Part shown: positions 45,183 to 56,443 of the stretch, piece by piece
How the letters are laid out: each line of letters opens with the position of its first letter
Numbering within the stretch: the stretch's first letter is position 1
Notes under the pieces: generated by a model
Seen by the model: only the letters and a program-made list of their open reading frames with translations
What the model was told of the DNA's origin: nothing
Database searches by the model: none
DNA from: Steroidobacteraceae bacterium
Lineage (GTDB): Bacteria; Pseudomonadota; Gammaproteobacteria; Steroidobacterales; Steroidobacteraceae
DNA: 64,000 nucleotides
Reading direction: 5' to 3'
Assembly (NCBI GenBank): GCA_035481975.1
Contig: DATHRC010000008.1
Span: 15,877 to 79,876, forward strand
Made by a program: the position numbers and the translations under genes

Positions 45183-47759
45183 CTACTTCCTCGGGCCGAA
45201 GGCGTAGGAGAATCGCAGGCCGATGGTGCGCGGACGGATCACCGTGTTCGACTTGACGAACAGCGAATAGAAGGAGAACGGGTAGCCCTGCGAGTTGCTG
45301 AGGTTCTCGCCGTAGAGCTGCGCCGTCCAGGCATCCTTGCTGACACCCAGCGCGGCGTTGTAGGTGGTGTAGCCCGGGTCATAGAAGGCGACCGACTGGC
45401 CCTGCAACGTCTTGGTGAGGTGATCGGTGGTGGCGTAGGAGCCGCCCTGGCGGTTGACGCCGGCCTGCAGGAACCCCTGGTAGTCGTAGAACGGAAACTC
45501 GTAGCGCGCGCGCAGGTTGCCCTGGAAGGGCGGGGAGTTCGCGAGCGGCGAGCCCAGGTCGCCGAAGGGATTGACGATATTGATCGGCTGGCCGGTCGTG
45601 GGGTTGACCAGGGACAGGGTCTTTACCACCTCGGTGCTGTTCCATGATGCCGAGCCGGTGAGCGTCAGACCCTCGGTGACGCGCGCGATGAAGGAGGTCT
45701 CTCCCCCGCGCACCCGATAGTTGGGGCCATTGGTGGTGAAGGTGAGATTGCCGGTCACGCCCGGATCGAAGATGGTGAGCTGTGTCCGGGTCCAGTCTTC
45801 CTGGTACACCGCGCCGTTCCATTGCAGACGGTGATCGAACCACTCGGTTTTCCAGCCGAGCTCGTTGTTGGTCAGCTCGTCGGGTCCGTAAGCGAGCGGC
45901 GGGGTGAACAGCCCGAAGAGCGGCGAGGTGGGCGCGATCACCGACGCCGCGCGGTTGAACCCGCCCGGCCGGAAGCCCTGTGACCAGGTGTAGTAGAGCA
46001 GGGCGTCGCGGGTGACGTGCCAGCTCAAGTTGGCGCGGCTCCTGAAGCCGGTATAGGTCTTGTCGAGATTTTCCGCATCCAGATTGGTGCCATTCGATTC
46101 CGGTATGCCGCAGGGACTGGGCGGCACGTTGCCGTCGAACGGCCCGTAGATCTCGCAGCCGAAGCTGCCGACATTCGAGCCGCTCTCGAAGTTCTCGATG
46201 TGGTAATAGCGCGTGCCGACGGTCAGGGTCAGCGTCTTCGGCAGCAGGTCAAAGTCCACCGAGGTAAAGGCCGCGCGCTGCTTGTAGCCGCGGTCGATGT
46301 CGTTGAAGAACACGTCCCCGGGCAGGCGCACGCGGGGATTGTTGGCGGTCACCCCGGGCGGCGGGGCGATGGGCACGAAATGCGGGCTGGTGCCGTAGTG
46401 CCAGTCGGCCTGCTCGTCGATCTCATACTTTTCGTAGAACAGCCCGGCGAGCGCGCGCAGGCGCCAGTCATCGGGCGTGCTCAGGCGCACCTCGTGGCTC
46501 TGGTGGGTGTTGGTCTGATAATCCGTCCAGAAGACGTTCGGCGAGTAGCAGAAGCCCGCCGATCCCGCCGTCGGCACCTTGTTCTTGAACGGGTAGCCGG
46601 GATAGTCGCACTGGTAGTAGCCGGCGTACTTGCCGCGGGAGTAGGCGGTGTAGTCGCTCACCTGGTTGGTGAGGCGGTCGAGGTAAGCGCCGGCGTAGAC
46701 GAATTGCAGGGCGGAGATGCGCCCGTTGATGGTGAGCGCGGTGTTCTCGAATTTGTCGCGGTCGTCGGTGGGGTTATATTGCTGCACCGACAGCGGCGGC
46801 AACGGTGTGCCAAGGCCGTCGTACTGCTCCTCCCAGAATACGCCCTGGGCGTCCATGTCCTGGTAGCTCTGCGCCAGCAGCACATTCCAGTCGTCGTCGA
46901 TCTTCCACAGCAGGGAAGCGCGTATACCCTGGTAGGTGACCGGATTGAACGCGTTGCTGATATAGGCGGAGTTGTTGATCGCGCCGCTGTTCGGCGGCAC
47001 GGCGCCGCCGAAGTAGTTCACCGACACCAGGTCGGACGTCGAGCGCGCGAAGGTGCCGGGGATGTTGTTGATGTAGCCGCCGCGCCGCTCATCGTAGATG
47101 ACCACGCGGGCGGCGAGGGTATCGGCGATCAGCGGTACATTCAGCGTGGCATCGAGGTTGCTGCTCGGATCGCCGTGCGCGGTGGTGCCGTAGCCGGCAT
47201 TGACCGTGCCGGTGGTGACGTCGAGCTTGGGCTTGTTGGTGATGTAACGCACCACGCCGGCTTCGGCGCCCGCGCCAAACAGCGTCCCCTGGGGTCCTTC
47301 GAGGATCTCGATGCGCTCCATGTCCGCGGCATAGATGTCGAGGTTGCGTCCGGGCAGCTGCCCGGACTGCTCGTCGAGATAGATGGCGACGTTCGGGAAG
47401 CTGCCGAGACTGCCCGAGCCCTGCTCGCCGCTCTGGCCGGTGGAGAGCCCGCGCATGTAGATCTCGCCCTGGCCCGGGCCGTTGCCGCCCCAGGTGACGT
47501 TCGGCAGATACTTGACGAAGTCATCGAGGGTGGTGACGTTGAGCTGCGCGATCGTCTCGGAGGTGAGCGCCTGCAGGGTGATCGGCACGTCCTGCGAGCT
47601 TTCCGCGCGGCGCTGCGCGGTGACGATGACTTCGCTGATTCCGGTGCCCGGCTCGCTGGCGGCGGCCGGAGCATCGCTCCTTTGCGCAAACGCCGGTGCG
47701 GCGGCGTGCGCCGCCAGGATGCCCGCCACCGCGCAGGAAATCCGGTAGTTCCTCTTCAT
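45183..47759 (-). CDS. TonB-dependent receptor
   Basis: 858 aa with a signal peptide. The plug region reads EVIVTAQRRAESSQDVPITLQALT, followed by IEILEGPQGTLFGAGAEAGVVRYITNKP. A long beta-barrel ends ...IGLRFSYAF. Confidence 0.9.
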   Translation of the reverse strand: MKRNYRISCAVAGILAAHAAAPAFAQRSDAPAAASEPGTGISEVIVTAQRRAESSQDVPITLQALTSETIAQLNVTTLDDFVKYLPNVTWGGNGPGQGEIYMRGLSTGQSGEQGSGSLGSFPNVAIYLDEQSGQLPGRNLDIYAADMERIEILEGPQGTLFGAGAEAGVVRYITNKPKLDVTTGTVNAGYGTTAHGDPSSNLDATLNVPLIADTLAARVVIYDERRGGYINNIPGTFARSTSDLVSVNYFGGAVPPNSGAINNSAYISNAFNPVTYQGIRASLLWKIDDDWNVLLAQSYQDMDAQGVFWEEQYDGLGTPLPPLSVQQYNPTDDRDKFENTALTINGRISALQFVYAGAYLDRLTNQVSDYTAYSRGKYAGYYQCDYPGYPFKNKVPTAGSAGFCYSPNVFWTDYQTNTHQSHEVRLSTPDDWRLRALAGLFYEKYEIDEQADWHYGTSPHFVPIAPPPGVTANNPRVRLPGDVFFNDIDRGYKQRAAFTSVDFDLLPKTLTLTVGTRYYHIENFESGSNVGSFGCEIYGPFDGNVPPSPCGIPESNGTNLDAENLDKTYTGFRSRANLSWHVTRDALLYYTWSQGFRPGGFNRAASVIAPTSPLFGLFTPPLAYGPDELTNNELGWKTEWFDHRLQWNGAVYQEDWTRTQLTIFDPGVTGNLTFTTNGPNYRVRGGETSFIARVTEGLTLTGSASWNSTEVVKTLSLVNPTTGQPINIVNPFGDLGSPLANSPPFQGNLRARYEFPFYDYQGFLQAGVNRQGGSYATTDHLTKTLQGQSVAFYDPGYTTYNAALGVSKDAWTAQLYGENLSNSQGYPFSFYSLFVKSNTVIRPRTIGLRFSYAFGPRK

Positions 47760-47793
47760 CCGCCCCCCTGCAGTGTCGTTGTCGAGGTGCCGC

Positions 47794-49308
47794 CTACGGG
47801 CCGGCCGCTTTATAAGCTGTCCAGATGGTCTTCAGGTCCGCATATTTCTCGATCGCATGCGCCGAGCGGTCGCGGCCGAAGCCCGACTGCTTGAAGCCAC
47901 CGAACGGGGTCGCGATCGAGGAGCGATCGAAGCTGTTCACCCACACGGTGCCGGCGCGCAGTCCCGCCGACAGGCGGTGCGCGGCGTTGATGTCGTGGGT
48001 CCACACCGCCGCCGCCAGGCCGTAGATGCTGTCGTTGGCGAGAATGAGCGCTTCGGCCTCGCTGCTGCACGGCATGACCGCCAGCACCGGTCCGAAGATC
48101 TCTTCGCGCGCCACGCGCATCTGCGGCTGCACCGCGTCGAGAATGGTCGCCTGCACGTAGTAACCGCCGGTCTCGGCGAGCGCCTGCCGGCCGCCGAGTG
48201 CCAGCTGCGCACCCTCCGCCACGCCGCTGTCGATGTAGCCGAGCACGCTGCGCATGTGGCCCTCATCGATCAGCGCTCCCATCTGCGTCGCCGGATCCAG
48301 CGGATGCCCGAGGCGGATGCCGGCGGTGACGCGGCGGATGGCGTCCAGCAGCCGCTCGCGCACGCTCGCCGCCACGATGACGCGCGAGCCGGCGTTACAG
48401 GTCTCGCCGGCGTTGTAATAGATGCCCCAGGCGATCGCCTCGGCCGCCGCGTCGAGGTCGGCATCCGCGAGCACCACGTGCGGGCTCTTGCCGCCGCACT
48501 CGAGCGAGACGCGCTTCAGGTTCGACTCCCCGGCGTAGCGCAGCATCAGCTTGCCCACCTCGGTCGAGCCGGTGAAGCTCACCATGTCGACGTCAGCGTG
48601 CAGCGCCAGCGGCTTGCCGGCCTCCGCGCCGAATCCCGGAACGACGTTCAGGACGCCCGGCGGCAGTCCCGCTTCCAGCGCAAGCTCGCCGAGGCGGATG
48701 GCGGTGAGCGGCGACTGCTCGGCGGGCTTCAGCACCACGGAGTTGCCGACGAGGAGTGCCGGAGCGATCTTCCAGCTGGTCACGATCAGCGGGTAGTTCC
48801 ACGGCACGATCGCCGCGACCACGCCGAGGGGCTCGCGGCGGATCAACGCCAGGTCATCAGGCCCGGTGGGTGCGATCTCGTCGTAGAGCTTGTCGGCGTA
48901 CTCGGCGTAGTAGGCGATGCAATCGGCGGCCTTCGGCACGTCGACGCCGAGCGAATCGCGGATCGGCTTGCCGACATCGAGTGTCTCGAGCATCGCCAGA
49001 TGCTCGAGATCGGCGCGGATCGCGTCCGCGAAGCGCAGCAGCACGCGCTTGCGCTCCTGCGGTGAGGTGCGGCGCCAGTGGCCCGCCTCGAACGCCGCGC
49101 GCGCGGCGGCGACTGCCGCCGCGACGTCCGCCTGCTCGCAGCGGGCGACGTGCGCGATCACGCGGCCATCGATCGGGCTCTTTTTCTCGAAGGTCCGGCC
49201 GCTGCGGGCGGCAACCCGTTGGCCATTGATCAGCGCGCGTCCTTCGGGACGCAAGGGCGCCGCGAGGCGCTCCCAATCGCTGCGGCTGCGGGCCGGAATC
49301 GCATTCAT
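47794..49308 (-). CDS. NAD(P)-dependent aldehyde dehydrogenase
   Basis: The start was moved to ATG 49308 (verified). Motifs are VPWNYPL, FTGSTEVGK and the catalytic Cys context VSLECGGKSP. Confidence 0.9.
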   Translation of the reverse strand: MNAIPARSRSDWERLAAPLRPEGRALINGQRVAARSGRTFEKKSPIDGRVIAHVARCEQADVAAAVAAARAAFEAGHWRRTSPQERKRVLLRFADAIRADLEHLAMLETLDVGKPIRDSLGVDVPKAADCIAYYAEYADKLYDEIAPTGPDDLALIRREPLGVVAAIVPWNYPLIVTSWKIAPALLVGNSVVLKPAEQSPLTAIRLGELALEAGLPPGVLNVVPGFGAEAGKPLALHADVDMVSFTGSTEVGKLMLRYAGESNLKRVSLECGGKSPHVVLADADLDAAAEAIAWGIYYNAGETCNAGSRVIVAASVRERLLDAIRRVTAGIRLGHPLDPATQMGALIDEGHMRSVLGYIDSGVAEGAQLALGGRQALAETGGYYVQATILDAVQPQMRVAREEIFGPVLAVMPCSSEAEALILANDSIYGLAAAVWTHDINAAHRLSAGLRAGTVWVNSFDRSSIATPFGGFKQSGFGRDRSAHAIEKYADLKTIWTAYKAAGP

Positions 49309-49467
49309 GATCGGTCGGGCTCCCAGGCACACAGGCGCCAGACGCAATGAGGCTATCACAAGGTACGTTGGTGCGGGAACGGCCTGGGCGGACTCCTCAG
49401 GAAGTTGCCCTGCGGCGGGGGCTCTCAGCGGCGGCAGCGCTGGCGGCGCGCAGCGCCCGCTCGCCGC

Positions 49468-50196: not shown

Positions 50197-50407
50197 AAGG
50201 CTCTCGCGTCCGTCGCTACGGCTTCAAGGGGCAGACTAATCATTGCCGCGACGGCCGCCAACAAGCGCAAAAAACGTGACGCCGTTGGGGATTGCGCGCC
50301 CGCCTGGCCGCGGCCCCCGCGGGGACGCTCGAGAAGCGTGACGGCGTACAGGACAGCTGCGCCCTGCGTTTGACCATAATGCGTCAAGGACCGGCCCCAC
50401 CACACTC

Positions 50408-51841
50408 ATGCCCAACGCATCCGCGACCGCAAGACTGCGTGCGCTTCCGGCGGTCCTGACGCTGGTCGCCGGACGCACCTCGCCTGATCAGCCCGGCACC
50501 GGGCCCGACAACTGGAGCGAGGGGCCGCCGTTCGCCGACGTCCAGCAGCTCATCCAGTCGGGAGTCGCTGCCGATGCGGTGATCCTCTACCCGAGCGATG
50601 CACATCAGGCGGTGAGCTGGCTGCAGGCGCTGCGCCGCGCGCCGCTGCTGGCGCTCGCGCCGATATTTCTCAACCGCTCCTGCGGCGAAGCCGTCGATGC
50701 CCTGAGTGACGGTGTGGCGGCAACTCTGGCGGCCGCAGCTTCGCGAGCTACCCTCATTGCCGGGCGCGCCCAGGCGCTCGGCCGCCGGCAGACGGCGGAG
50801 GGCGATGAGCGGCTGCTCGCGTTCCTCTATCTTCGTCCCGAGCGGGTGCTCACACCCGTGGCCGACTGGCGCGACGAGCGCATCTATCGCTATCCGCTCG
50901 CAGATGTCCTCGGCCACAACGGCGAGGATGGCTTCCTGCTGCTCGACGGGCTGCGACGGCGGGGACTGCTCGAGACGGCCGAGCTGATCGAGCGCGTGCA
51001 CACCTGTCCGGAGTGTTCCGCGGGACAGTTGCTGTTCATCGAGACGTGCCCGCAATGCGGCAGCATCGACACGGCCGTACAGAATTTTCTGCATTGCTAC
51101 GCGTGCGGCAACGTCGCCACCCAGGAAGAGTATCTGCGGGCGGACGGACTGAGCTGTCCGAAGTGCTCGGCGCGGCTGCGTCACATCGGCGTCGACTACG
51201 ATCGCGCCCTGGAGACCCAGGCCTGCAACGCCTGCCGCGCGCGCTTCACCGAACCGAGCGTGAAGGCACGCTGCCTGCGCTGCAGCCAGCTGTCCGCGAC
51301 CGATGAGCTCACCGAGCGCAGCTACTACGGCATGCGCCTGTCGGCGGCGGGCGAGCTGGCCGCGCGCACCGGGCAGATCGGCGACTTCTTCAGGCTCATT
51401 GATGAGTTCAGCCAGGCCCACCCGACCTACTTCACCGGCAACCTCGAGTGGCTGCTGAGTCTCTCCCGACGCCATCCCGAGCTGCAGTTCGGCCTGATCT
51501 GCCTGAAGTTCGCCAACGTCCGGCTGCTCGCGGCACGGCTGCCCCACGGGCGGGTGGCGCAGATGTTCGATGCGCTGGCGCAGCGCCTGCGGGCGCTGGT
51601 GCGCGTCACCGATCTGTTCATGCGCAACGCCGATGAATACTGCTGGCTGCTGCTGCCGCAGACTTCCCCCGAAGGCATCGCCACGGTGATGGAGCGCATC
51701 GCCGCGCTGCGCGATGCGGCGACCCCGGAGGAGGGGCTGCGCATCGAGATCACGACCGCCGCCTTCAGCTCGCTGGACGCGAGCGAGGAGATCACCGATG
51801 CCCGGGTGCTGATGGGCACGCTGCGCAGCCGGGTCGACTGA
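50408..51841 (+). CDS. regulator-like protein: N-terminal receiver-like region, six-CxxC zinc-ribbon module (TackOD1-like), C-terminal degenerate GGDEF-like domain with retained RxxD
   Basis: 477 aa. The CxxC pairs are CPEC, CPQC, CYAC, CPKC, CNAC and CLRC at residues 200-292 (nt 51005-51283). The GGDEF-like fold then reads LICLKFANVRLL...RVTDLFMRNADEYCWLLLP (nt 51599-51640), with ADEYC in place of GG[DE]EF. The stop overlaps the GT2 start (TGATG). Confidence 0.75.
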   Translation: MPNASATARLRALPAVLTLVAGRTSPDQPGTGPDNWSEGPPFADVQQLIQSGVAADAVILYPSDAHQAVSWLQALRRAPLLALAPIFLNRSCGEAVDALSDGVAATLAAAASRATLIAGRAQALGRRQTAEGDERLLAFLYLRPERVLTPVADWRDERIYRYPLADVLGHNGEDGFLLLDGLRRRGLLETAELIERVHTCPECSAGQLLFIETCPQCGSIDTAVQNFLHCYACGNVATQEEYLRADGLSCPKCSARLRHIGVDYDRALETQACNACRARFTEPSVKARCLRCSQLSATDELTERSYYGMRLSAAGELAARTGQIGDFFRLIDEFSQAHPTYFTGNLEWLLSLSRRHPELQFGLICLKFANVRLLAARLPHGRVAQMFDALAQRLRALVRVTDLFMRNADEYCWLLLPQTSPEGIATVMERIAALRDAATPEEGLRIEITTAAFSSLDASEEITDARVLMGTLRSRVD

Positions 51842-53181
51842 TGGACGTGCTGCTCACATTCGGTGATGCCGCGCTGACCTTGCGGCAGCTGCTGGAGACG
51901 GCGTGGTACTCCGACTGGACGAGCGTTGCGCTCAAGTTCTTTCCCTTCGTGCTGCTGTTCGAGCTGCCGCTGCAGCTGCTGGTGATGCTGGGGGCGGTGC
52001 GCCACTACCTCGAGGCCCGCGGCGCGCGCCAGCCGTTGAACTTCAATCCGCGGGTGTCGTGCATCATCACCTGTTACTCCGAAGGCGCCGACGTGCGGCA
52101 CACCGTGCGCACGCTCACCGAACAGCTCTATGACGGCCAGATCGAGATGCTGGCGGTGGTGGACGGCGCGGTGCAGAACCGCGAGACCCTCGCGGCGCTG
52201 CGCGCGCTGCAGGCCTACGTCGACACGCGCCGCGACCGCCGGCTGGAGATCGTTCCCAAGCTGCAGCGCGGTGGGCGCGTCTCGAGCCTGAACCAGGGGC
52301 TCGCGCTCGCCAGCGGTCAGGTCGTCATGGCGCTCGACGGTGACACCTCTTTCGACAACGACATGGTGCGCCACGCCGTGCGGCACTTCGCCGACCGGAA
52401 CGTCGTCGCGGTGGCGGGGAATCTGCGGGTGCGCAATGCCTTCAGCACGCTGGTCACCCGGCTGCAGGCGCTGGAGTACGCGCTGTCGATTCACCTGAGC
52501 CGTGCGGGTCTCGATGCCTTCAATATCGTCAACAACGTCTCCGGCGCCTTCGGCGTCTTCCGGCGCGATTTCCTGCGGCAGATCGGCGGCTGGGACAGCG
52601 GCACCGCCGAGGACCTCGATCTCACGCTGCGCATCAAGAAATATTTCGCGCGTTACCCGGGGCTGCGGATCCGCTTCGAGCCGCGCGCCATCGGACATAC
52701 GGATGCACCCACCACGCTGCGGCAATTCCTGCGGCAGCGCCTGCGCTGGGACGGCGACCTGTCCTACCTGTACCTGCGCAAGCACGTCCACCACCTGCGC
52801 CCGGGTCTGCTCGGCATGCGCAATTTCCTGGCGTTCATCTGGACCGGCCTGCTATTCCAGCTGGTGACGCCGTTCGTGGTGCTGAGCTACACCCTCTACG
52901 TGTTCTGCGTCTATCCGCCCGGAGTGGTGCTGGGCGTGCTGGCGTTCGTGTACCTGTTCTATCTGGTGCTCGTCGCCCTCATGTACGCGGAGTACTGGCT
53001 GCTCTACTCGGAGCGCAAGCGCCAGGACCTGCGCCTCGCCGTCCTGCTGCCGGTCTTTCCGCTATTCACCTTCGTCATGCGCTGCTGGAACGCCATCGCC
53101 ACCTTGAGTGAGCTGCTGACGAAGTCGCACCTCGAGTCGGCGATGGCGCCCTCCTGGGTGCTCAAGCGCACGAAGTTCTGA
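51841..53181 (+). CDS. family-2 processive glycosyltransferase (PgaC/NodC/cellulose-synthase-like membrane-embedded synthase)
   Basis: 446 aa. N-terminal and C-terminal TM helices are present. The catalytic motifs are CIITCYSEG, ALDGDT (DxD), GAFGVFRR, GTAEDLDL (TED) and QRLRWDGD (QxxRW). Confidence 0.9.
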   Translation: MDVLLTFGDAALTLRQLLETAWYSDWTSVALKFFPFVLLFELPLQLLVMLGAVRHYLEARGARQPLNFNPRVSCIITCYSEGADVRHTVRTLTEQLYDGQIEMLAVVDGAVQNRETLAALRALQAYVDTRRDRRLEIVPKLQRGGRVSSLNQGLALASGQVVMALDGDTSFDNDMVRHAVRHFADRNVVAVAGNLRVRNAFSTLVTRLQALEYALSIHLSRAGLDAFNIVNNVSGAFGVFRRDFLRQIGGWDSGTAEDLDLTLRIKKYFARYPGLRIRFEPRAIGHTDAPTTLRQFLRQRLRWDGDLSYLYLRKHVHHLRPGLLGMRNFLAFIWTGLLFQLVTPFVVLSYTLYVFCVYPPGVVLGVLAFVYLFYLVLVALMYAEYWLLYSERKRQDLRLAVLLPVFPLFTFVMRCWNAIATLSELLTKSHLESAMAPSWVLKRTKF

Positions 53182-53183
53182 AC

Positions 53184-55376
53184 ATGGCGATAAGCGCACG
53201 CATTCTGCCCCGGCTCGCCGCGGCCTGCTGCCTGTGGCCGGTGGCGGCGCTCGCGCTGCCGCCGCTCGAGCAACTGGAAACGCGCCTGGAGCTTTCGCCC
53301 GCCGCGCAGCTCGCCGAGCGGTCCTACGAGTCCAGCCGCGATACGCTCGGCGCCGGTCGGATCGGGCTCGGCGTGAGCGCCTTCGGCAACTTAGGCTACG
53401 AGCACAATCACGACATCATCGACCCGCAGCATTCCTGGACCTACACCCAGGGGCTGGTCGGCGGCGGCCTGTCCATGCCGCTGCTCGGCAGCCGCCTGCA
53501 GCTCGAGCAAAACTTGAGCGAGCAGCAGGTGCAGCTCGCGCTCCTCGACGCGCGCCGGCAGCTGCAGCGGCGCGAGCTGCTGGCGCGCCTGCGCAAGGCG
53601 TACGCCGACTACTGGCAGGCGCAGCGCCTGGAACTCCTCGCGCAGAGTTACCTGCAGGAAGAGCCCGGCTTCGAGCACGTGGCGGAGCTGCGCACCCGCG
53701 CCGGGCTGCTGCTGGATGCGGATCGCATCGAGCTGCTCAGCGGCTTTTCGCTGGCACGGCGCGATGAGGCGGCCGGCGGCGCGGACCGCGAGGTGGCGCT
53801 TGGGCTGATGCGCGAGCTCACCGGGCAGGATCTGGACGGCGGCATCGCCGTGCGGCCGCTGGTCTCGGCGGAGTGCGTCGGCACGGCGTCCCCGGACGAT
53901 GACTGGGCGGACACCGATCCGGAGCTCACCGGACTACAGCAGGTCATCGCGCTGCGCGAAGCCAGCCCCCGTGACAGCGCGCTCTATCCCGTGCAGTCGA
54001 GCGTTCAGCTCGGCTACTCCTCCCTCGAGGACTGGCCGACCGGGCAGCACGGGGCATCGGCGGTCCTGAGCTGGACGTTCCAGGTGCCGCTCGAATACGG
54101 CACGCAGCGCCGGCTCCTCGCCCGCGCCGCGTCTGCGCAGGTGGCCCACGCCCGCCTCGAGTACGAGATGCGACGCCAGGAGCTGCACCAGCAGCGCAGC
54201 GAGCTCGTCGGGCGCGCCCAGGTGCTGCGCCAGTCCACCGAATTCGCTGCCACGCGGCTCGCCGCCGCCGATGCCGCCGTGCAGGAGCGTGGCCTGCGGG
54301 CGGCGAGGCTCGGTGGCGATGTCGCCGAGCAACTGCAGCGCGCACGCCTGCAGCGCTACAACGCGGCCAAGGCACTCGCAGAAGCCGACAAGGCGCTGGT
54401 GTACTGGTATGCCGACTGGGCACGCTTCGAGACGGCACCGTGTGAGTCGGCGCCGAATGCCTTCCGGCAGCGGCTGCCCGAGGGCATCGCTGCCGGGCGG
54501 CCGCTGCTGCTGCCGGTGGCGAGCGTGCCGGGCACCGCGGCTGCGATGCCGGCCGCCGCGGCCGCCGCGCCTGCCGAGCTGCGCGCCGATCGCGCACTGT
54601 ATCTGTGGCACTCGGCGGACTGGCTCGCGAGTGCATCTTCTTCTTCCGGCGAGAGCAAATTCACCGAGCTGCATGCCGCCGGCATCAAGCGGCTGCTGAT
54701 CTCGCTCGATGCCGCGCAGATGCGCCGCGCCATCGCCCGCCCGGCGCTGCTGGTGAAAGCGGTGCGCAGCACCCACGAGCACGGCTTCAGTGTCGAGCTG
54801 CTGCTAGGTGACCCGGGCTGGATCCGCCCGGCGCAGCGCGGCCGGCTGCTGGCCATCATTGCCGGTCTCAAATCCGTACCGTTCGACGGGGTGCATCTCG
54901 ACCTCGAGCCCGCGCAGCTCGATCCGGCGCCGGAGAAGCTGCCGCAGCTCCTCGCCGAGCTGACGCGCACCCTGGCCGCGGTGAGCCGGGCGAGTCCCTG
55001 GCCGGTCGCGCTCAGCACCCATCCGCGCGATCTCGCCGTGGAGCTGCCCGGCGAGGGCAGCTTCGCGCAGGCGCTGCGCCGGCTGCGGATCTCAACCACC
55101 CTGATGGTCTATGTGGCCAATCCCGAGCGTGCGGTGGCGATCGCGCAGCCGCTGCTCGAGCGTTATCCGCAGCTGTCGTTCAGCGTCGCGCTGAGCCTGG
55201 AGCGCTCGCTCGGCCGCGACGAGAGCCTGTGGCCGTATCCCGAAGAGGAGCGCCGCGAGCGCCTCGAGCGGGTGGAGAGTGAGCTCACCGCCGCCAACTT
55301 CCGCGGACTCACCCTGCAGCTCGAGGACGCCTGGGGTGACGCGGCCGGGCTTCCCAGGCTCGCCACCGGAGAGTGA
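53184..55376 (+). CDS. TolC/OEP-family outer-membrane channel (~430 aa) fused to a ~265-aa C-terminal TIM-barrel-like (glycoside-hydrolase-like) domain
   Basis: 730 aa with a signal peptide. It has two OEP-type repeats with long helices (QLALLDARRQLQRRELLARLRKAYADYWQAQ...; ...AQVAHARLEYEMRRQELHQQRSELVGRAQ). An Ala/Pro linker follows. From about nt 54580 the domain reads IKRLLISLD...FSVELLLGDPGW...FDGVHLDLEP. Confidence 0.75.
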   Translation: MAISARILPRLAAACCLWPVAALALPPLEQLETRLELSPAAQLAERSYESSRDTLGAGRIGLGVSAFGNLGYEHNHDIIDPQHSWTYTQGLVGGGLSMPLLGSRLQLEQNLSEQQVQLALLDARRQLQRRELLARLRKAYADYWQAQRLELLAQSYLQEEPGFEHVAELRTRAGLLLDADRIELLSGFSLARRDEAAGGADREVALGLMRELTGQDLDGGIAVRPLVSAECVGTASPDDDWADTDPELTGLQQVIALREASPRDSALYPVQSSVQLGYSSLEDWPTGQHGASAVLSWTFQVPLEYGTQRRLLARAASAQVAHARLEYEMRRQELHQQRSELVGRAQVLRQSTEFAATRLAAADAAVQERGLRAARLGGDVAEQLQRARLQRYNAAKALAEADKALVYWYADWARFETAPCESAPNAFRQRLPEGIAAGRPLLLPVASVPGTAAAMPAAAAAAPAELRADRALYLWHSADWLASASSSSGESKFTELHAAGIKRLLISLDAAQMRRAIARPALLVKAVRSTHEHGFSVELLLGDPGWIRPAQRGRLLAIIAGLKSVPFDGVHLDLEPAQLDPAPEKLPQLLAELTRTLAAVSRASPWPVALSTHPRDLAVELPGEGSFAQALRRLRISTTLMVYVANPERAVAIAQPLLERYPQLSFSVALSLERSLGRDESLWPYPEEERRERLERVESELTAANFRGLTLQLEDAWGDAAGLPRLATGE

Positions 55377-56443
55377 CCATGCAGGTGCAATTCAAGTCCA
55401 AACCGCGCGCACCCGACGAGTTGGGGGGAGTGAAGATTCTCTATGCCAAGGCGCGCGGCAAGGGGCACAGGCTCGCCTGGTATCTGATCCTGCTGGTGGT
55501 GCTGTCGCCGATCTTCGTGCTCCTGAGCGGAGTGGTGGGCTCCTGGCTCACCCTGACGGCCAACGGCACGGTGTCGCTCGAGCAGCACGAGGTGCGCGCG
55601 GTGCGCGCCGCACGCATCAGTCGCCTCACCGTCGCCGTCGGCGACCGGGTCGAGGCCGGCGCGACGCTCGCCGAGCTCGACAGCCTCGATCTCGATGCGG
55701 CCGCGGCCCACAACGCCGTCGAGCGGCAGGCGGCCGCGCAGGCGCAGCGCGGCGCCTACGCCCAGCAGCAAGCGGCGCTTGATGAACTGCGGCTCAAGGA
55801 GCGGTACGTGCGCTATCAGCGGCAGCGCCGCGACGAGATTGCCGCGCTGGTCGATGAGGGCGCGGCGACGGTCGCCGAGCTCGATACGGCCGAAACTGCG
55901 GTCACGGAGGCCGAGGTGGAGCTGGTGCAGTTGCGGGCGACGGCGGCGCGGATGCCGGCGGCGAGCACCGCCGAGGTCGATCACGAGCTGCTCGAGCGCC
56001 AGCAAGACTCTATGATCCTGACGGCGCCCTTCGGCGGTCGCGTCCTCGAGCTCGGCGCGCGCCAGGGCGAGTACGTCGCTCCCGGCGAGCCCGTGGTCGT
56101 GCTGGCGCGCACCGACACAGCGCGGGTGCTCGCCTATGCGTCGCCGAAGTTCGGCACGCAGCTCAAGGTCGGCATGCAGGCGACCATCCGTTTCCCGGAC
56201 GGCACGCGCATCCGCGCGCTCATCGCCGAGCCGCCGCCACTCACCCAGCGCATGCCGGCGGACCTCGTGGACCAGTTCGGACTGCGGCCGATGACGGTCG
56301 TGCTGAACCTCTTGCCCCAGGAGCGCCTGAGTGAAACCCAGCGTGTCCAGGGCCTGCCCGTAACCGTGCGCTTCCACTACGCGTGGGAGTCCTCAGGCAT
56401 CGGCGGTTTCGTCGGCGGCTTGCTGGGGGATCTGAGCCGCTAG
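55373..56443 (+). CDS. HlyD-family periplasmic adaptor (membrane-fusion protein)
   Basis: GTG 55373 overlaps the upstream stop (GTGA). An alternative in-frame ATG lies at 55379 (MQVQFKS). An N-terminal TM helix (LAWYLILLVVLSPIFVLLSGVV) is followed by a lipoyl-like region (RLTVAVGDRVEAGATLAELD), a coiled coil and a beta-barrel region (ILTAPFGGRVLEL). Confidence 0.85.
   Translation: MTMQVQFKSKPRAPDELGGVKILYAKARGKGHRLAWYLILLVVLSPIFVLLSGVVGSWLTLTANGTVSLEQHEVRAVRAARISRLTVAVGDRVEAGATLAELDSLDLDAAAAHNAVERQAAAQAQRGAYAQQQAALDELRLKERYVRYQRQRRDEIAALVDEGAATVAELDTAETAVTEAEVELVQLRATAARMPAASTAEVDHELLERQQDSMILTAPFGGRVLELGARQGEYVAPGEPVVVLARTDTARVLAYASPKFGTQLKVGMQATIRFPDGTRIRALIAEPPPLTQRMPADLVDQFGLRPMTVVLNLLPQERLSETQRVQGLPVTVRFHYAWESSGIGGFVGGLLGDLSR

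Follow-up and report, generated by a model that had tools for sequence, protein, structure and literature searches.

What does a protein that joins a set of zinc ribbons to a decayed GGDEF domain do beside a polysaccharide synthase? The question is raised by a 477-residue open reading frame in a 64,000-nucleotide stretch of DNA (hereafter the window) from a Steroidobacteraceae bacterium (GenBank assembly GCA_035481975.1, contig DATHRC010000008.1, positions 15,877 to 79,876 of the forward strand). This gene, which we refer to as the regulator gene, opens a run of four genes; the second encodes a membrane glycosyltransferase of family 2 (GT2), the third an outer-membrane channel of the TolC type and the fourth a periplasmic adaptor. 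A first-pass annotation, made by a model from the letters of the window and a list of open reading frames, had predicted that the regulator is a receptor for cyclic di-GMP (c-di-GMP) that serves the synthase. We found that the regulator is a predicted orthologue of MxdA of Shewanella oneidensis, a reported c-di-GMP binder, and this homology supports the predicted receptor role. We consider it probable, from sequence and gene context, that the regulator senses c-di-GMP as a subunit of a synthase-dependent exopolysaccharide secretion system of the Mxd type. Neither the MxdA identity nor an N-terminal receiver-like domain had been remarked upon in the first-pass annotation.

A GGDEF domain with a lost catalytic motif and a retained I-site

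The C-terminal region of the regulator matched the Pfam GGDEF family (PF00990) with 26.1 bits, where the gathering score is 23.8, over residues 341-438 and profile positions 14-110 of 161. When a family profile of 83 relatives was searched against all PDB sequences, the significant matches were GGDEF domains only (E ~3e-6). We also modeled the regulator with AlphaFold2 on the alignment of its relatives, which gave a mean predicted local distance difference test score (pLDDT) of 87.5 and a predicted template modeling score of 0.77. All top Foldseek matches of the C-terminus of this model were GGDEF domains (E 1e-7 to 1e-5), with target TM-scores of ~0.6-0.7 over ~142 columns at 10-20% identity. 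Together, these searches indicate that the C-terminal domain has, in sequence profile and in model, a GGDEF fold, as had been judged earlier by eye.

The catalytic motif of this domain is destroyed. In the profile alignment, the family consensus 'RttDlfmReddehC' stands opposite 'RDTDKFGRWGGEEF' of a solved cyclase; because of this alignment, we place ADEYC (residues 408-412) at the position of GGEEF, which bears out the earlier reading that the GG[DE]EF motif is gone. To describe conservation, we used 78 full-length relatives from genomes of many phyla and a wider set of 525 relatives. In the wider set, the five positions of the GGDEF motif were unconserved, the commonest residue reaching only 14-56%. 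Similarly, the PDB profile alignment set the acidic 'DxD' region of beta-1, a metal and substrate region in cyclases, opposite 'LKF' in the regulator. These data predict that the GGDEF domain of the regulator is catalytically dead.

The domain's inhibitory site (I-site) tells the opposite story. The regulator contains the string RVTDLFMRNADEYC, which includes an RVTD motif; the first-pass annotation had correctly seen that an RxxD I-site is kept, but its numbering was one residue too low (398-401, where the motif occupies 399-402). R399 and D402 are near-invariant, at 98% and 99% of the wider set, and among the 78 full-length relatives the residues were kept in 77 (R399), 78 (D402), 75 (R406) and 74 (R430). 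Counted back from position 408, R399 stands at a distance of nine residues and D402 at one of six, which is the spacing given for the RxxD of the PleD I-site relative to its GGDEF motif (PMC2170427). The allosteric site of PleD comprises, on the same chain, R359, D362 and R390 (PMC7288161). The distance from D402 to R430 is 28 residues, identical to that from D362 to R390 in PleD, and R430 stands opposite the Arg of 'GERVR' or 'CERLR' in solved cyclases in the PDB profile alignment. In the wider set, 73% of the relatives have Arg and 23% have Lys at position 430, our candidate for the third I-site residue, which is thus basic in 96%. The regulator therefore combines canonical RxxD spacing and a downstream basic residue with the loss of catalysis, the combination that marks I-site receptors of the PelD, PssE, YdaK and PopA type.

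The I-site triad and the metal ligands of the zinc-ribbon domain (see below) are conserved while the GGDEF motif drifts; the I-site and the metal sites, but not catalysis, would therefore seem to be under selection. By this pattern, constraint within the GGDEF remnant seems to fall on the I-site triad.

The regulator belongs to the MxdA family

In S. oneidensis, the mxdABCD operon encodes MxdA, a degenerate GGDEF protein that binds c-di-GMP, the GT2 protein MxdB, MxdC, which resembles an efflux-pump component, and the hypothetical protein MxdD (PMC3691769, PMC3409153, PMC7666153, PMC11395469). According to these papers, aggregation and biofilm formation are lost in mxdA and mxdB mutants, and MxdA, which affects c-di-GMP levels only indirectly, is treated as an effector that probably sets off the Mxd exopolysaccharide machinery. 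The two-hybrid partners of MxdA that they report are MxdA itself, the cyclase PdgA and CheY3, and binding to CheY3 correlates with biofilm complementation. Self-association is counted here because the pair pUT18-mxdA and pKT25-mxdA served as the positive two-hybrid control.

We identified MxdA of strain MR-1 (SO_4180, AAN57153.1), the product of the first gene of mxdABCD, in a 90% cluster via the family profile. No Shewanella sequence was among the top 120 matches of a profile built from Marinobacter and Pseudomonas members, and published primer sequences for the mxd promoter had no match in two metagenome scans. The regulator and MxdA share 32% identity over 420 aa (BLASTP, E=1e-63). MxdA is 462 aa long, compared with 477 for the regulator, and is likewise built of three parts; in Pfam it shows the same TackOD1 zinc-ribbon domain (E=4.7e-71) followed by GGDEF (22.5 bits). 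Like the regulator, it has lost the GGDEF motif and kept all zinc ligands, and its RVTD motif is identical; W413 of the regulator corresponds to Leu in MxdA. In the alignment, MxdA carries TRDGL as its GGDEF equivalent, at five residues after its RVTD. We rejected NVDEF, which has been described as the degenerate GGDEF motif of MxdA: no relative has such a motif at the GGDEF position, and the NVDEF of MxdA (~aa 352-356; locus L084, 8001-9389) aligns with the 'DxDxF' region of beta-1, at N370-V371 of the regulator.

The neighboring genes point in the same direction. The GT2 of the window is 49% identical to MxdB (E=3e-141), and the adaptor is 26% identical to MxdC over its full length (E=2e-33); in the S. 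oneidensis chromosome, mxdA and mxdB overlap by 4 nt. The two operons differ in composition. In the window, a gene for a 730-aa TolC-like fusion protein lies between the GT2 and adaptor genes, and the Shewanella operon has no counterpart of it; conversely, the window holds no MxdD homologue, and the four-gene composition mxdABCD is not reproduced. The hosts also differ, that of the window being an uncultured high-GC gammaproteobacterium with near relatives that carry the label Steroidobacteraceae, unlike S. oneidensis. From sequence, architecture and context, we assign the regulator to the MxdA family as a predicted MxdA orthologue, in an operon of different composition. The family, its degenerate GGDEF domain and the reported c-di-GMP binding are already known, and the window protein is a further member. 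That MxdA is a TackOD1 protein is a label that databases carry, and the paper on TackOD1 (PMC5847659) makes no mention of MxdA. What seems little appreciated in the literature available is this TackOD1 identity of MxdA, the constraint on the I-site triad, and the wide spread of the family and of the longer operon form described below.

Zinc-ribbon and receiver-like domains precede the GGDEF remnant

The middle of the regulator is a nearly complete TackOD1 domain (Table 1), which agrees with the assignment that had been made from its six CxxC pairs. These pairs lie exactly where they had been listed: CPEC at 200, CPQC at 214, CYAC at 230, CPKC at 250, CNAC at 273 and CLRC at 289. The pairs and the Pfam matches far exceed what chance would produce. 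In the wider set, the cysteines of the pairs and one histidine (C200, C203, C214, C217, H229, C230, C233, C250, C253, C273, C276, C289 and C292) are 98-100% conserved. The 12 cysteines and H229 can supply enough ligands for three zinc sites, and zinc binding is predicted. By its definition, TackOD1 is an output domain found in archaeal response regulators; it has five CxxC motifs and one HxxC, and its function was called obscure (PMC5847659). The conserved Cys/His pattern of the regulator agrees with that description.

In the AlphaFold2 model, the TackOD1 region opens with a helical segment, after which comes the zinc-ribbon core, and pLDDT is mostly above 90. The helices span residues 133-142, 163-168 and 175-184, and a long beta-hairpin then leads to the first CxxC. 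A Foldseek search with a separate AlphaFold2 model of residues 1-315 (pLDDT 88.9) found no structural match to TackOD1 in the PDB below E=0.03, and its matches included no DNA-binding or winged-helix structure; the profile of 83 relatives likewise found no TackOD1 sequence match among all PDB sequences. As modeled, TackOD1 appears to be without a solved structural relative at the Foldseek sensitivity used.

Ahead of TackOD1, the AlphaFold2 models show alternating strands and helices from about residue 12 to 125. The best Foldseek matches of the 1-315 model in this region, none of them significant, were receiver domains: DrrB, the REC domain of PleD and PhoB (E 0.03-0.2, probability 0.7-0.84), and, when KdpE is counted with them, E 0.03-0.5 and probability up to 0.84. 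In six family members, the first 130 residues matched no Pfam family, PF00072 included, at E values up to 10. Y61 ends the strand 57-61, where the phospho-acceptor Asp would sit, in a column that varies within the family, and the family alignment has no conserved acidic residue at the end of the third strand. With low confidence, we describe this domain, from the models, as receiver-like at most and as non-phosphorylatable. Shewanella MxdA binds the chemotaxis regulator CheY3, and the receiver-like domain is a candidate docking site for CheY proteins or cyclases.

A hydrophobicity check of the 477-aa sequence detected no transmembrane or hydrophobic segment; because no such segment was seen, we predict that the regulator is soluble and cytoplasmic. 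The Pfam scan detected no helix-turn-helix (HTH) family and no GAF domain in it.

The operon around the regulator

The regulator gene and the three genes that follow it are listed with their features in Table 1.

Table 1. Features of the mxd-like operon and of its regulator, in window coordinates.
Feature	Position	Strand	Detail	Basis
MxdA-like regulator gene	50408..51841	+	477 aa, ATG start	open reading frame analysis
Regulator domain order	50408..51841	+	receiver-like N-domain, TackOD1, degenerate GGDEF	Pfam and AlphaFold2
N-terminal alpha/beta domain	50441..50782	+	aa ~12-125	AlphaFold2, weak Foldseek matches
TackOD1 (PF18551)	50789..51337	+	aa 128-310; profile positions 5-187 of 188	Pfam, E=7.5e-63
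Six CxxC pairs and H229	51005..51283	+	aa 200-292	sequence, conservation
Degenerate GGDEF domain	51428..51838	+	aa 341-477	Pfam, PDB profile match, AlphaFold2/Foldseek
RxxD I-site motif	51602..51613	+	R399-V-T-D402	sequence, conservation
ADEYC replacing GG[DE]EF	51629..51643	+	aa 408-412	alignment to solved cyclases
R430, candidate third I-site residue	51695..51697	+		ungapped spacing, D402+28 = PleD R390
TGATG stop/start overlap, regulator and GT2 genes	51839..51843	+	stop TGA 51839-51841, ATG 51841-51843, one base in common	
MxdB-like GT2 membrane synthase	51841..53181	+	446 aa	Pfam Glyco_trans_2_3, Glycos_transf_2
Secreted protein, TolC-like OEP domain and C-terminal domain	53184..55376	+	730 aa	Pfam OEP (PF02321), two stretches
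MxdC-like HlyD/membrane-fusion periplasmic adaptor	55373..56443	+	356 aa	Pfam HlyD_D23, HlyD_3

The coupling of the regulator gene to a GT2 synthase gene, claimed in the first-pass annotation from the TGATG sequence, held on both counts: the stop and start codons share the base at 51841, and Pfam identifies the downstream product as a GT2. This protein has one N-terminal and several C-terminal transmembrane segments and the motifs DGD166, AED256-258 and QRLRW299. We rejected its identification as the poly-beta-1,6-GlcNAc synthase PgaC/IcaA; against the NCBIfam equivalog PgaC_IcaA it scored 154.1 bits, below the cutoff of 422.3. By its sequence it would be a related processive GT2, PgaC/IcaA-like.

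The 730-aa protein has a signal-peptide-like N-terminus, an OEP part at residues ~1-440 and a conserved C-terminal domain at residues ~441-730 (~290 aa; ~54504-55373). No Pfam family was found for the C-terminal domain, alone or across 15 members. A weak PDB profile match (E=0.04) to a 'putative GH97' lies around an LDLEP motif in which, across the protein's family, the D and the E are invariant; with this as the sole PDB match and no Pfam family, we do not claim that the domain is a glycoside hydrolase. An outer-membrane channel with a possible polymer-processing domain would be an unusual combination. The adaptor gene has a GTG start and overlaps the preceding gene by 4 nt, and its product has an N-terminal transmembrane anchor. 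All three genes downstream of the regulator are thus joined by overlaps or by a 2-nt gap.

On both sides the operon is flanked by genes on the opposite strand, one for a glutathione S-transferase (GST) upstream and one for an AhpC/TSA protein downstream, which look functionally unrelated. A 211-bp intergenic region (50197-50407) precedes the regulator gene, and scans with promoter and terminator consensus sequences around the operon ends gave no match. In the L081 strain, whose regulator is 100% identical, a gene for a 1385-aa GAF/HisKA/HATPase/REC/GGDEF/EAL hybrid lies beyond the GST gene (L081, 1-1819); in the window, at 45183-49359, its place is taken by genes for an aldehyde dehydrogenase and a TonB-dependent receptor. 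The upstream flank of the operon is variable, and in the L081 strain a protein of c-di-GMP turnover is encoded nearby.

A long-form mxd operon occurs in many phyla

When one genome per bacterial species was scanned, at least 578 loci proved to encode relatives of the regulator, and an exhaustive hidden Markov model search of 1.84 billion cluster representatives (clusters at 50% identity) found 978 clusters at E <= 1e-30. We compared gene order in the best 80 of the at least 578 loci. The order regulator, GT2, OEP fusion, adaptor was kept in ~78 of the 80, wherever the contig was long enough; the exceptions were L037, with no GT2 gene nearby, and L059, which is rearranged. The 80 loci, which include Gamma- and Betaproteobacteria and Myxococcota, come from Steroidobacteraceae, Pseudomonas, Marinobacter, Thioalkalivibrio, Nitrosomonas, Comamonadaceae, Desulfobacterota, Anaeromyxobacter, Campylobacterales, Fibrobacteres, Sedimentisphaerales and Armatimonadota. 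Among them, the GT2 gene was the most conserved gene of the operon (44-81% identity), and in most related loci the regulator stop and the GT2 start overlapped or were separated by a gap of at most ~10 nt.

The gene for the 730-aa OEP fusion was present in most of these loci and is absent from the operons of Shewanella, Vibrio and Aeromonas; Vibrio parahaemolyticus and Aeromonas veronii have a short, three-gene form. The window thus carries a 'long-form' mxd operon, the commoner form among the loci examined. In the clade of Vibrio, Aliivibrio, Shewanella and Aeromonas, whose operon is of the short form, Q or N stands in place of R406, L in place of W413 and K in place of R430, and RxxD is kept. 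From these alignments, the periphery of the I-site seems to co-vary with the operon form.

The database names of the relatives do not reflect this relationship: in Pseudomonas, V. parahaemolyticus, Aliivibrio fischeri and Aeromonas, many are called 'diguanylate cyclase' and a few 'histidine kinase'. These enzyme names are probably wrong, because the catalytic motif is unconserved in the family. Well-studied species therefore carry an unrecognized mxd-like operon. Two longer relatives (P0220 and P0304) have N-terminal extensions in which no recognizable domain was found. A 762-aa metagenomic protein (P0073) joins the regulator to the GT2 in one open reading frame, with Pfam matches to TackOD1 and to GT2 families. 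We rejected it as evidence of a physical link between the two, as the C-terminus of its regulator part and the end of its GT2 part diverge abruptly, which suggests assembly frameshifts.

Proposed function and alternative explanations

We propose that c-di-GMP would bind at R399, D402 and R430, as suggested by the conservation of these residues and by the reported binding of c-di-GMP by MxdA. The liganded regulator would then switch on the co-translated GT2 post-translationally, a step suggested by the coupling of the two genes and by the precedents of PelD, PssE and YdaK. The HlyD-like adaptor, together with the TolC-like outer-membrane protein, would carry the polymer out of the cell, judging from the families present and as in other systems that combine a GT2, an adaptor and TolC. 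The TackOD1 and receiver-like domains would most likely provide docking or oligomerization surfaces for the synthase, for cyclases and for CheY-like partners, as the two-hybrid data on MxdA suggest.

Several points weigh against this proposal. Ordinary GGDEF domains also keep D402 and R406, and part of the conservation of these two residues may be structural; MxdA itself has N at the position of R406 and K at that of R430. The I-site is only the putative place at which MxdA binds c-di-GMP, and the cited Mxd papers, which state that MxdA 'probably' activates the synthase, report no direct contact between MxdA and MxdB. The function of TackOD1, an output domain of archaeal response regulators, is obscure, and its helical segment could be a DNA-binding module. 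The sole fused open reading frame of regulator and GT2, P0073, is weak evidence given its likely frameshift. One family member is not beside a GT2 gene at all: at L037 (7923-9314), the gene for a protein with TackOD1 (E=1.5e-62) and GGDEF (32.8 bits) has an iron-type ABC transporter on one side and phoB/phoR/pst genes on the other, and the protein may act in trans or differ in role.

Some of these points would fit a regulator that acts on DNA, that is, a c-di-GMP-responsive transcription factor whose TackOD1 helices and zinc ribbons bind DNA and control its own operon. The 211-bp upstream region counts in favor of this reading. TackOD1 was defined in archaeal response regulators that include REC-wHTH-TackOD1 forms (wHTH, winged HTH; PMC5847659), the three helices and the beta-hairpin before the first CxxC resemble a winged helix in the AlphaFold2 model, one relative (P0518) bears the UniRef name 'Putative Zn-ribbon and HTH transcriptional regulator', and the L037 homologue, apart from any GT2 gene, adjoins phoB/phoR. 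Yet Foldseek found no DNA-binding fold with the 1-315 model and nothing below E=0.03, Pfam detected no HTH family, and the published partners of MxdA (CheY3, PdgA and MxdA) are proteins. Moreover, across phyla the regulator stop almost always overlaps the GT2 start, which suggests co-production of a stoichiometric subunit. We therefore judge a transcription factor unlikely. That the regulator has diguanylate cyclase activity, conditional or not, and supplies c-di-GMP locally to the synthase appears far less credible still. The names 'diguanylate cyclase' and 'GGDEF domain-containing protein' that NCBI and JGI give to relatives speak for it, as does a Pfam GGDEF match just above threshold, and some cyclases with imperfect motifs, for example AGDEF, are active according to the part of PMC3974145 available to us. 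These points are met by ADEYC in place of GGEEF at five unconstrained positions, by 'LKF' opposite the 'DxD' of beta-1, by a profile match that ends at position 110 of 161 and begins only at 14, and by the Mxd papers themselves, which give MxdA an indirect effect on c-di-GMP levels and the role of an effector.

A further explanation accepts the loss of catalysis and goes beyond it: the regulator would be a structural or assembly subunit with a nucleotide-blind GGDEF remnant, in which RxxD serves folding or a protein interface, and regulation would come through the receiver-like domain and CheY-like partners. In its favor are the general conservation of D402 and R406 in GGDEF domains, the replacement of R406, W413 and R430 in the Vibrio/Shewanella clade, and the binding of CheY3 by MxdA, correlated as it is with biofilm complementation. 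But R399, which is specific to the I-site, is 98% conserved and position 430 is basic in 96%, MxdA is reported to bind c-di-GMP, and the PelD triad alone suffices for micromolar binding (PMC2170427), and we regard a nucleotide-blind scaffold as improbable. We thus retain the c-di-GMP-sensing subunit as the probable role of the regulator.

Taking the parts together, we tentatively put forward a fuller picture, which may well prove wrong in one or another of its elements. TackOD1 would dock the c-di-GMP-loaded GGDEF remnant on the membrane GT2 or oligomerize the regulator; the long mxd operon would be a self-contained machine of GT2, adaptor and TolC-like channel, the channel bearing a polymer-processing domain; and the receiver-like N-terminal domain would be the place where CheY-type proteins dock. 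If this is true, coupling through TackOD1 would be a fourth, mechanistically distinct link between c-di-GMP and polysaccharide, beside the PilZ domain of BcsA, PelD-PelF and PgaC-PgaD, and chemotaxis output would be tied to matrix production well beyond Shewanella.

For the window alone, the result amounts to a well-founded functional annotation and falls short of a discovery. Its wider meaning lies in the family. Work on Mxd has been confined to Shewanella and has viewed it as a species-specific biofilm operon, and the family spans many phyla and includes members in Pseudomonas, Vibrio, Aeromonas and Nitrosomonas. TackOD1 gains a first functional context, and culturable hosts, such as Pseudomonas putida and P. 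brassicacearum strains with the four-gene operon, are available in which the coupling of receptor and synthase and the polymer itself can be studied.

Comparison with known systems

The first-pass annotation had called the regulator a PelD-type solution. PelD is anchored in the membrane, has a GAF domain and acts with the cytosolic GT4 enzyme PelF. In Pseudomonas aeruginosa, R367, D370 and R402 of PelD are needed for the binding of c-di-GMP and for polysaccharide production (PMC2170427). The likeness holds in logic: both proteins are degenerate GGDEF receptors with RxxD and a downstream Arg, encoded in a polysaccharide operon. It does not extend to architecture, since the regulator lacks a transmembrane segment and a GAF domain, has receiver-like and TackOD1 domains, and pairs with a membrane GT2. 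We rejected membership in the PelD family on these grounds and because its neighbors (GT2, OEP and HlyD) are not pel genes; no sequence relationship to PelD beyond the GGDEF fold was seen. PelD is thus an analogue of the regulator and not a relative.

PssE of Listeria monocytogenes and YdaK of Bacillus subtilis are membrane-anchored receptors. Like the regulator, they are I-site receptors beside a GT2 synthase with c-di-GMP-dependent polymer output, being degenerate-GGDEF proteins of GT2-containing exopolysaccharide operons as described in the available parts of two papers (PMC4125290, PMC5422440). Unlike the window system, these are Gram-positive systems, without TackOD1, a receiver-like domain, or genes for an outer-membrane channel or an adaptor. 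Cyclases of the PleD type share with the regulator the GGDEF fold, the RxxD spacing and a third Arg 28 residues past the Asp, but in the regulator the catalytic motif and the substrate residues are lost, and the site would activate a partner instead of inhibiting catalysis.

The archaeal REC-TackOD1 regulators (Galperin et al. 2018; PMC5847659) have the same Pfam domain and, like the regulator, a receiver or receiver-like domain at the N-terminus. They lack GGDEF and lie in type IV pilus loci. The receiver-like domain of the window protein is without a recognizable phospho-acceptor.

Finally, the operon as a whole resembles c-di-GMP-controlled exporters composed of a GT2, a membrane-fusion protein and TolC, such as those for the mixed-linkage glucan of rhizobia (BgsBA) and for cyanobacterial cellulose, as reported in the available parts of PMC13438883, PMC12430437 and PMC5567048. 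Both combine a processive GT2 with an adaptor of the HlyD type and a TolC-like channel, as does the window operon. According to the available part of PMC5567048, the C-terminus of the synthase itself holds the c-di-GMP site of BgsA, whereas in the window the predicted site is on a separate protein. Unlike in the BgsBA and cyanobacterial cellulose systems, the outer-membrane channel of the window is encoded within the operon and is fused to an extra domain.

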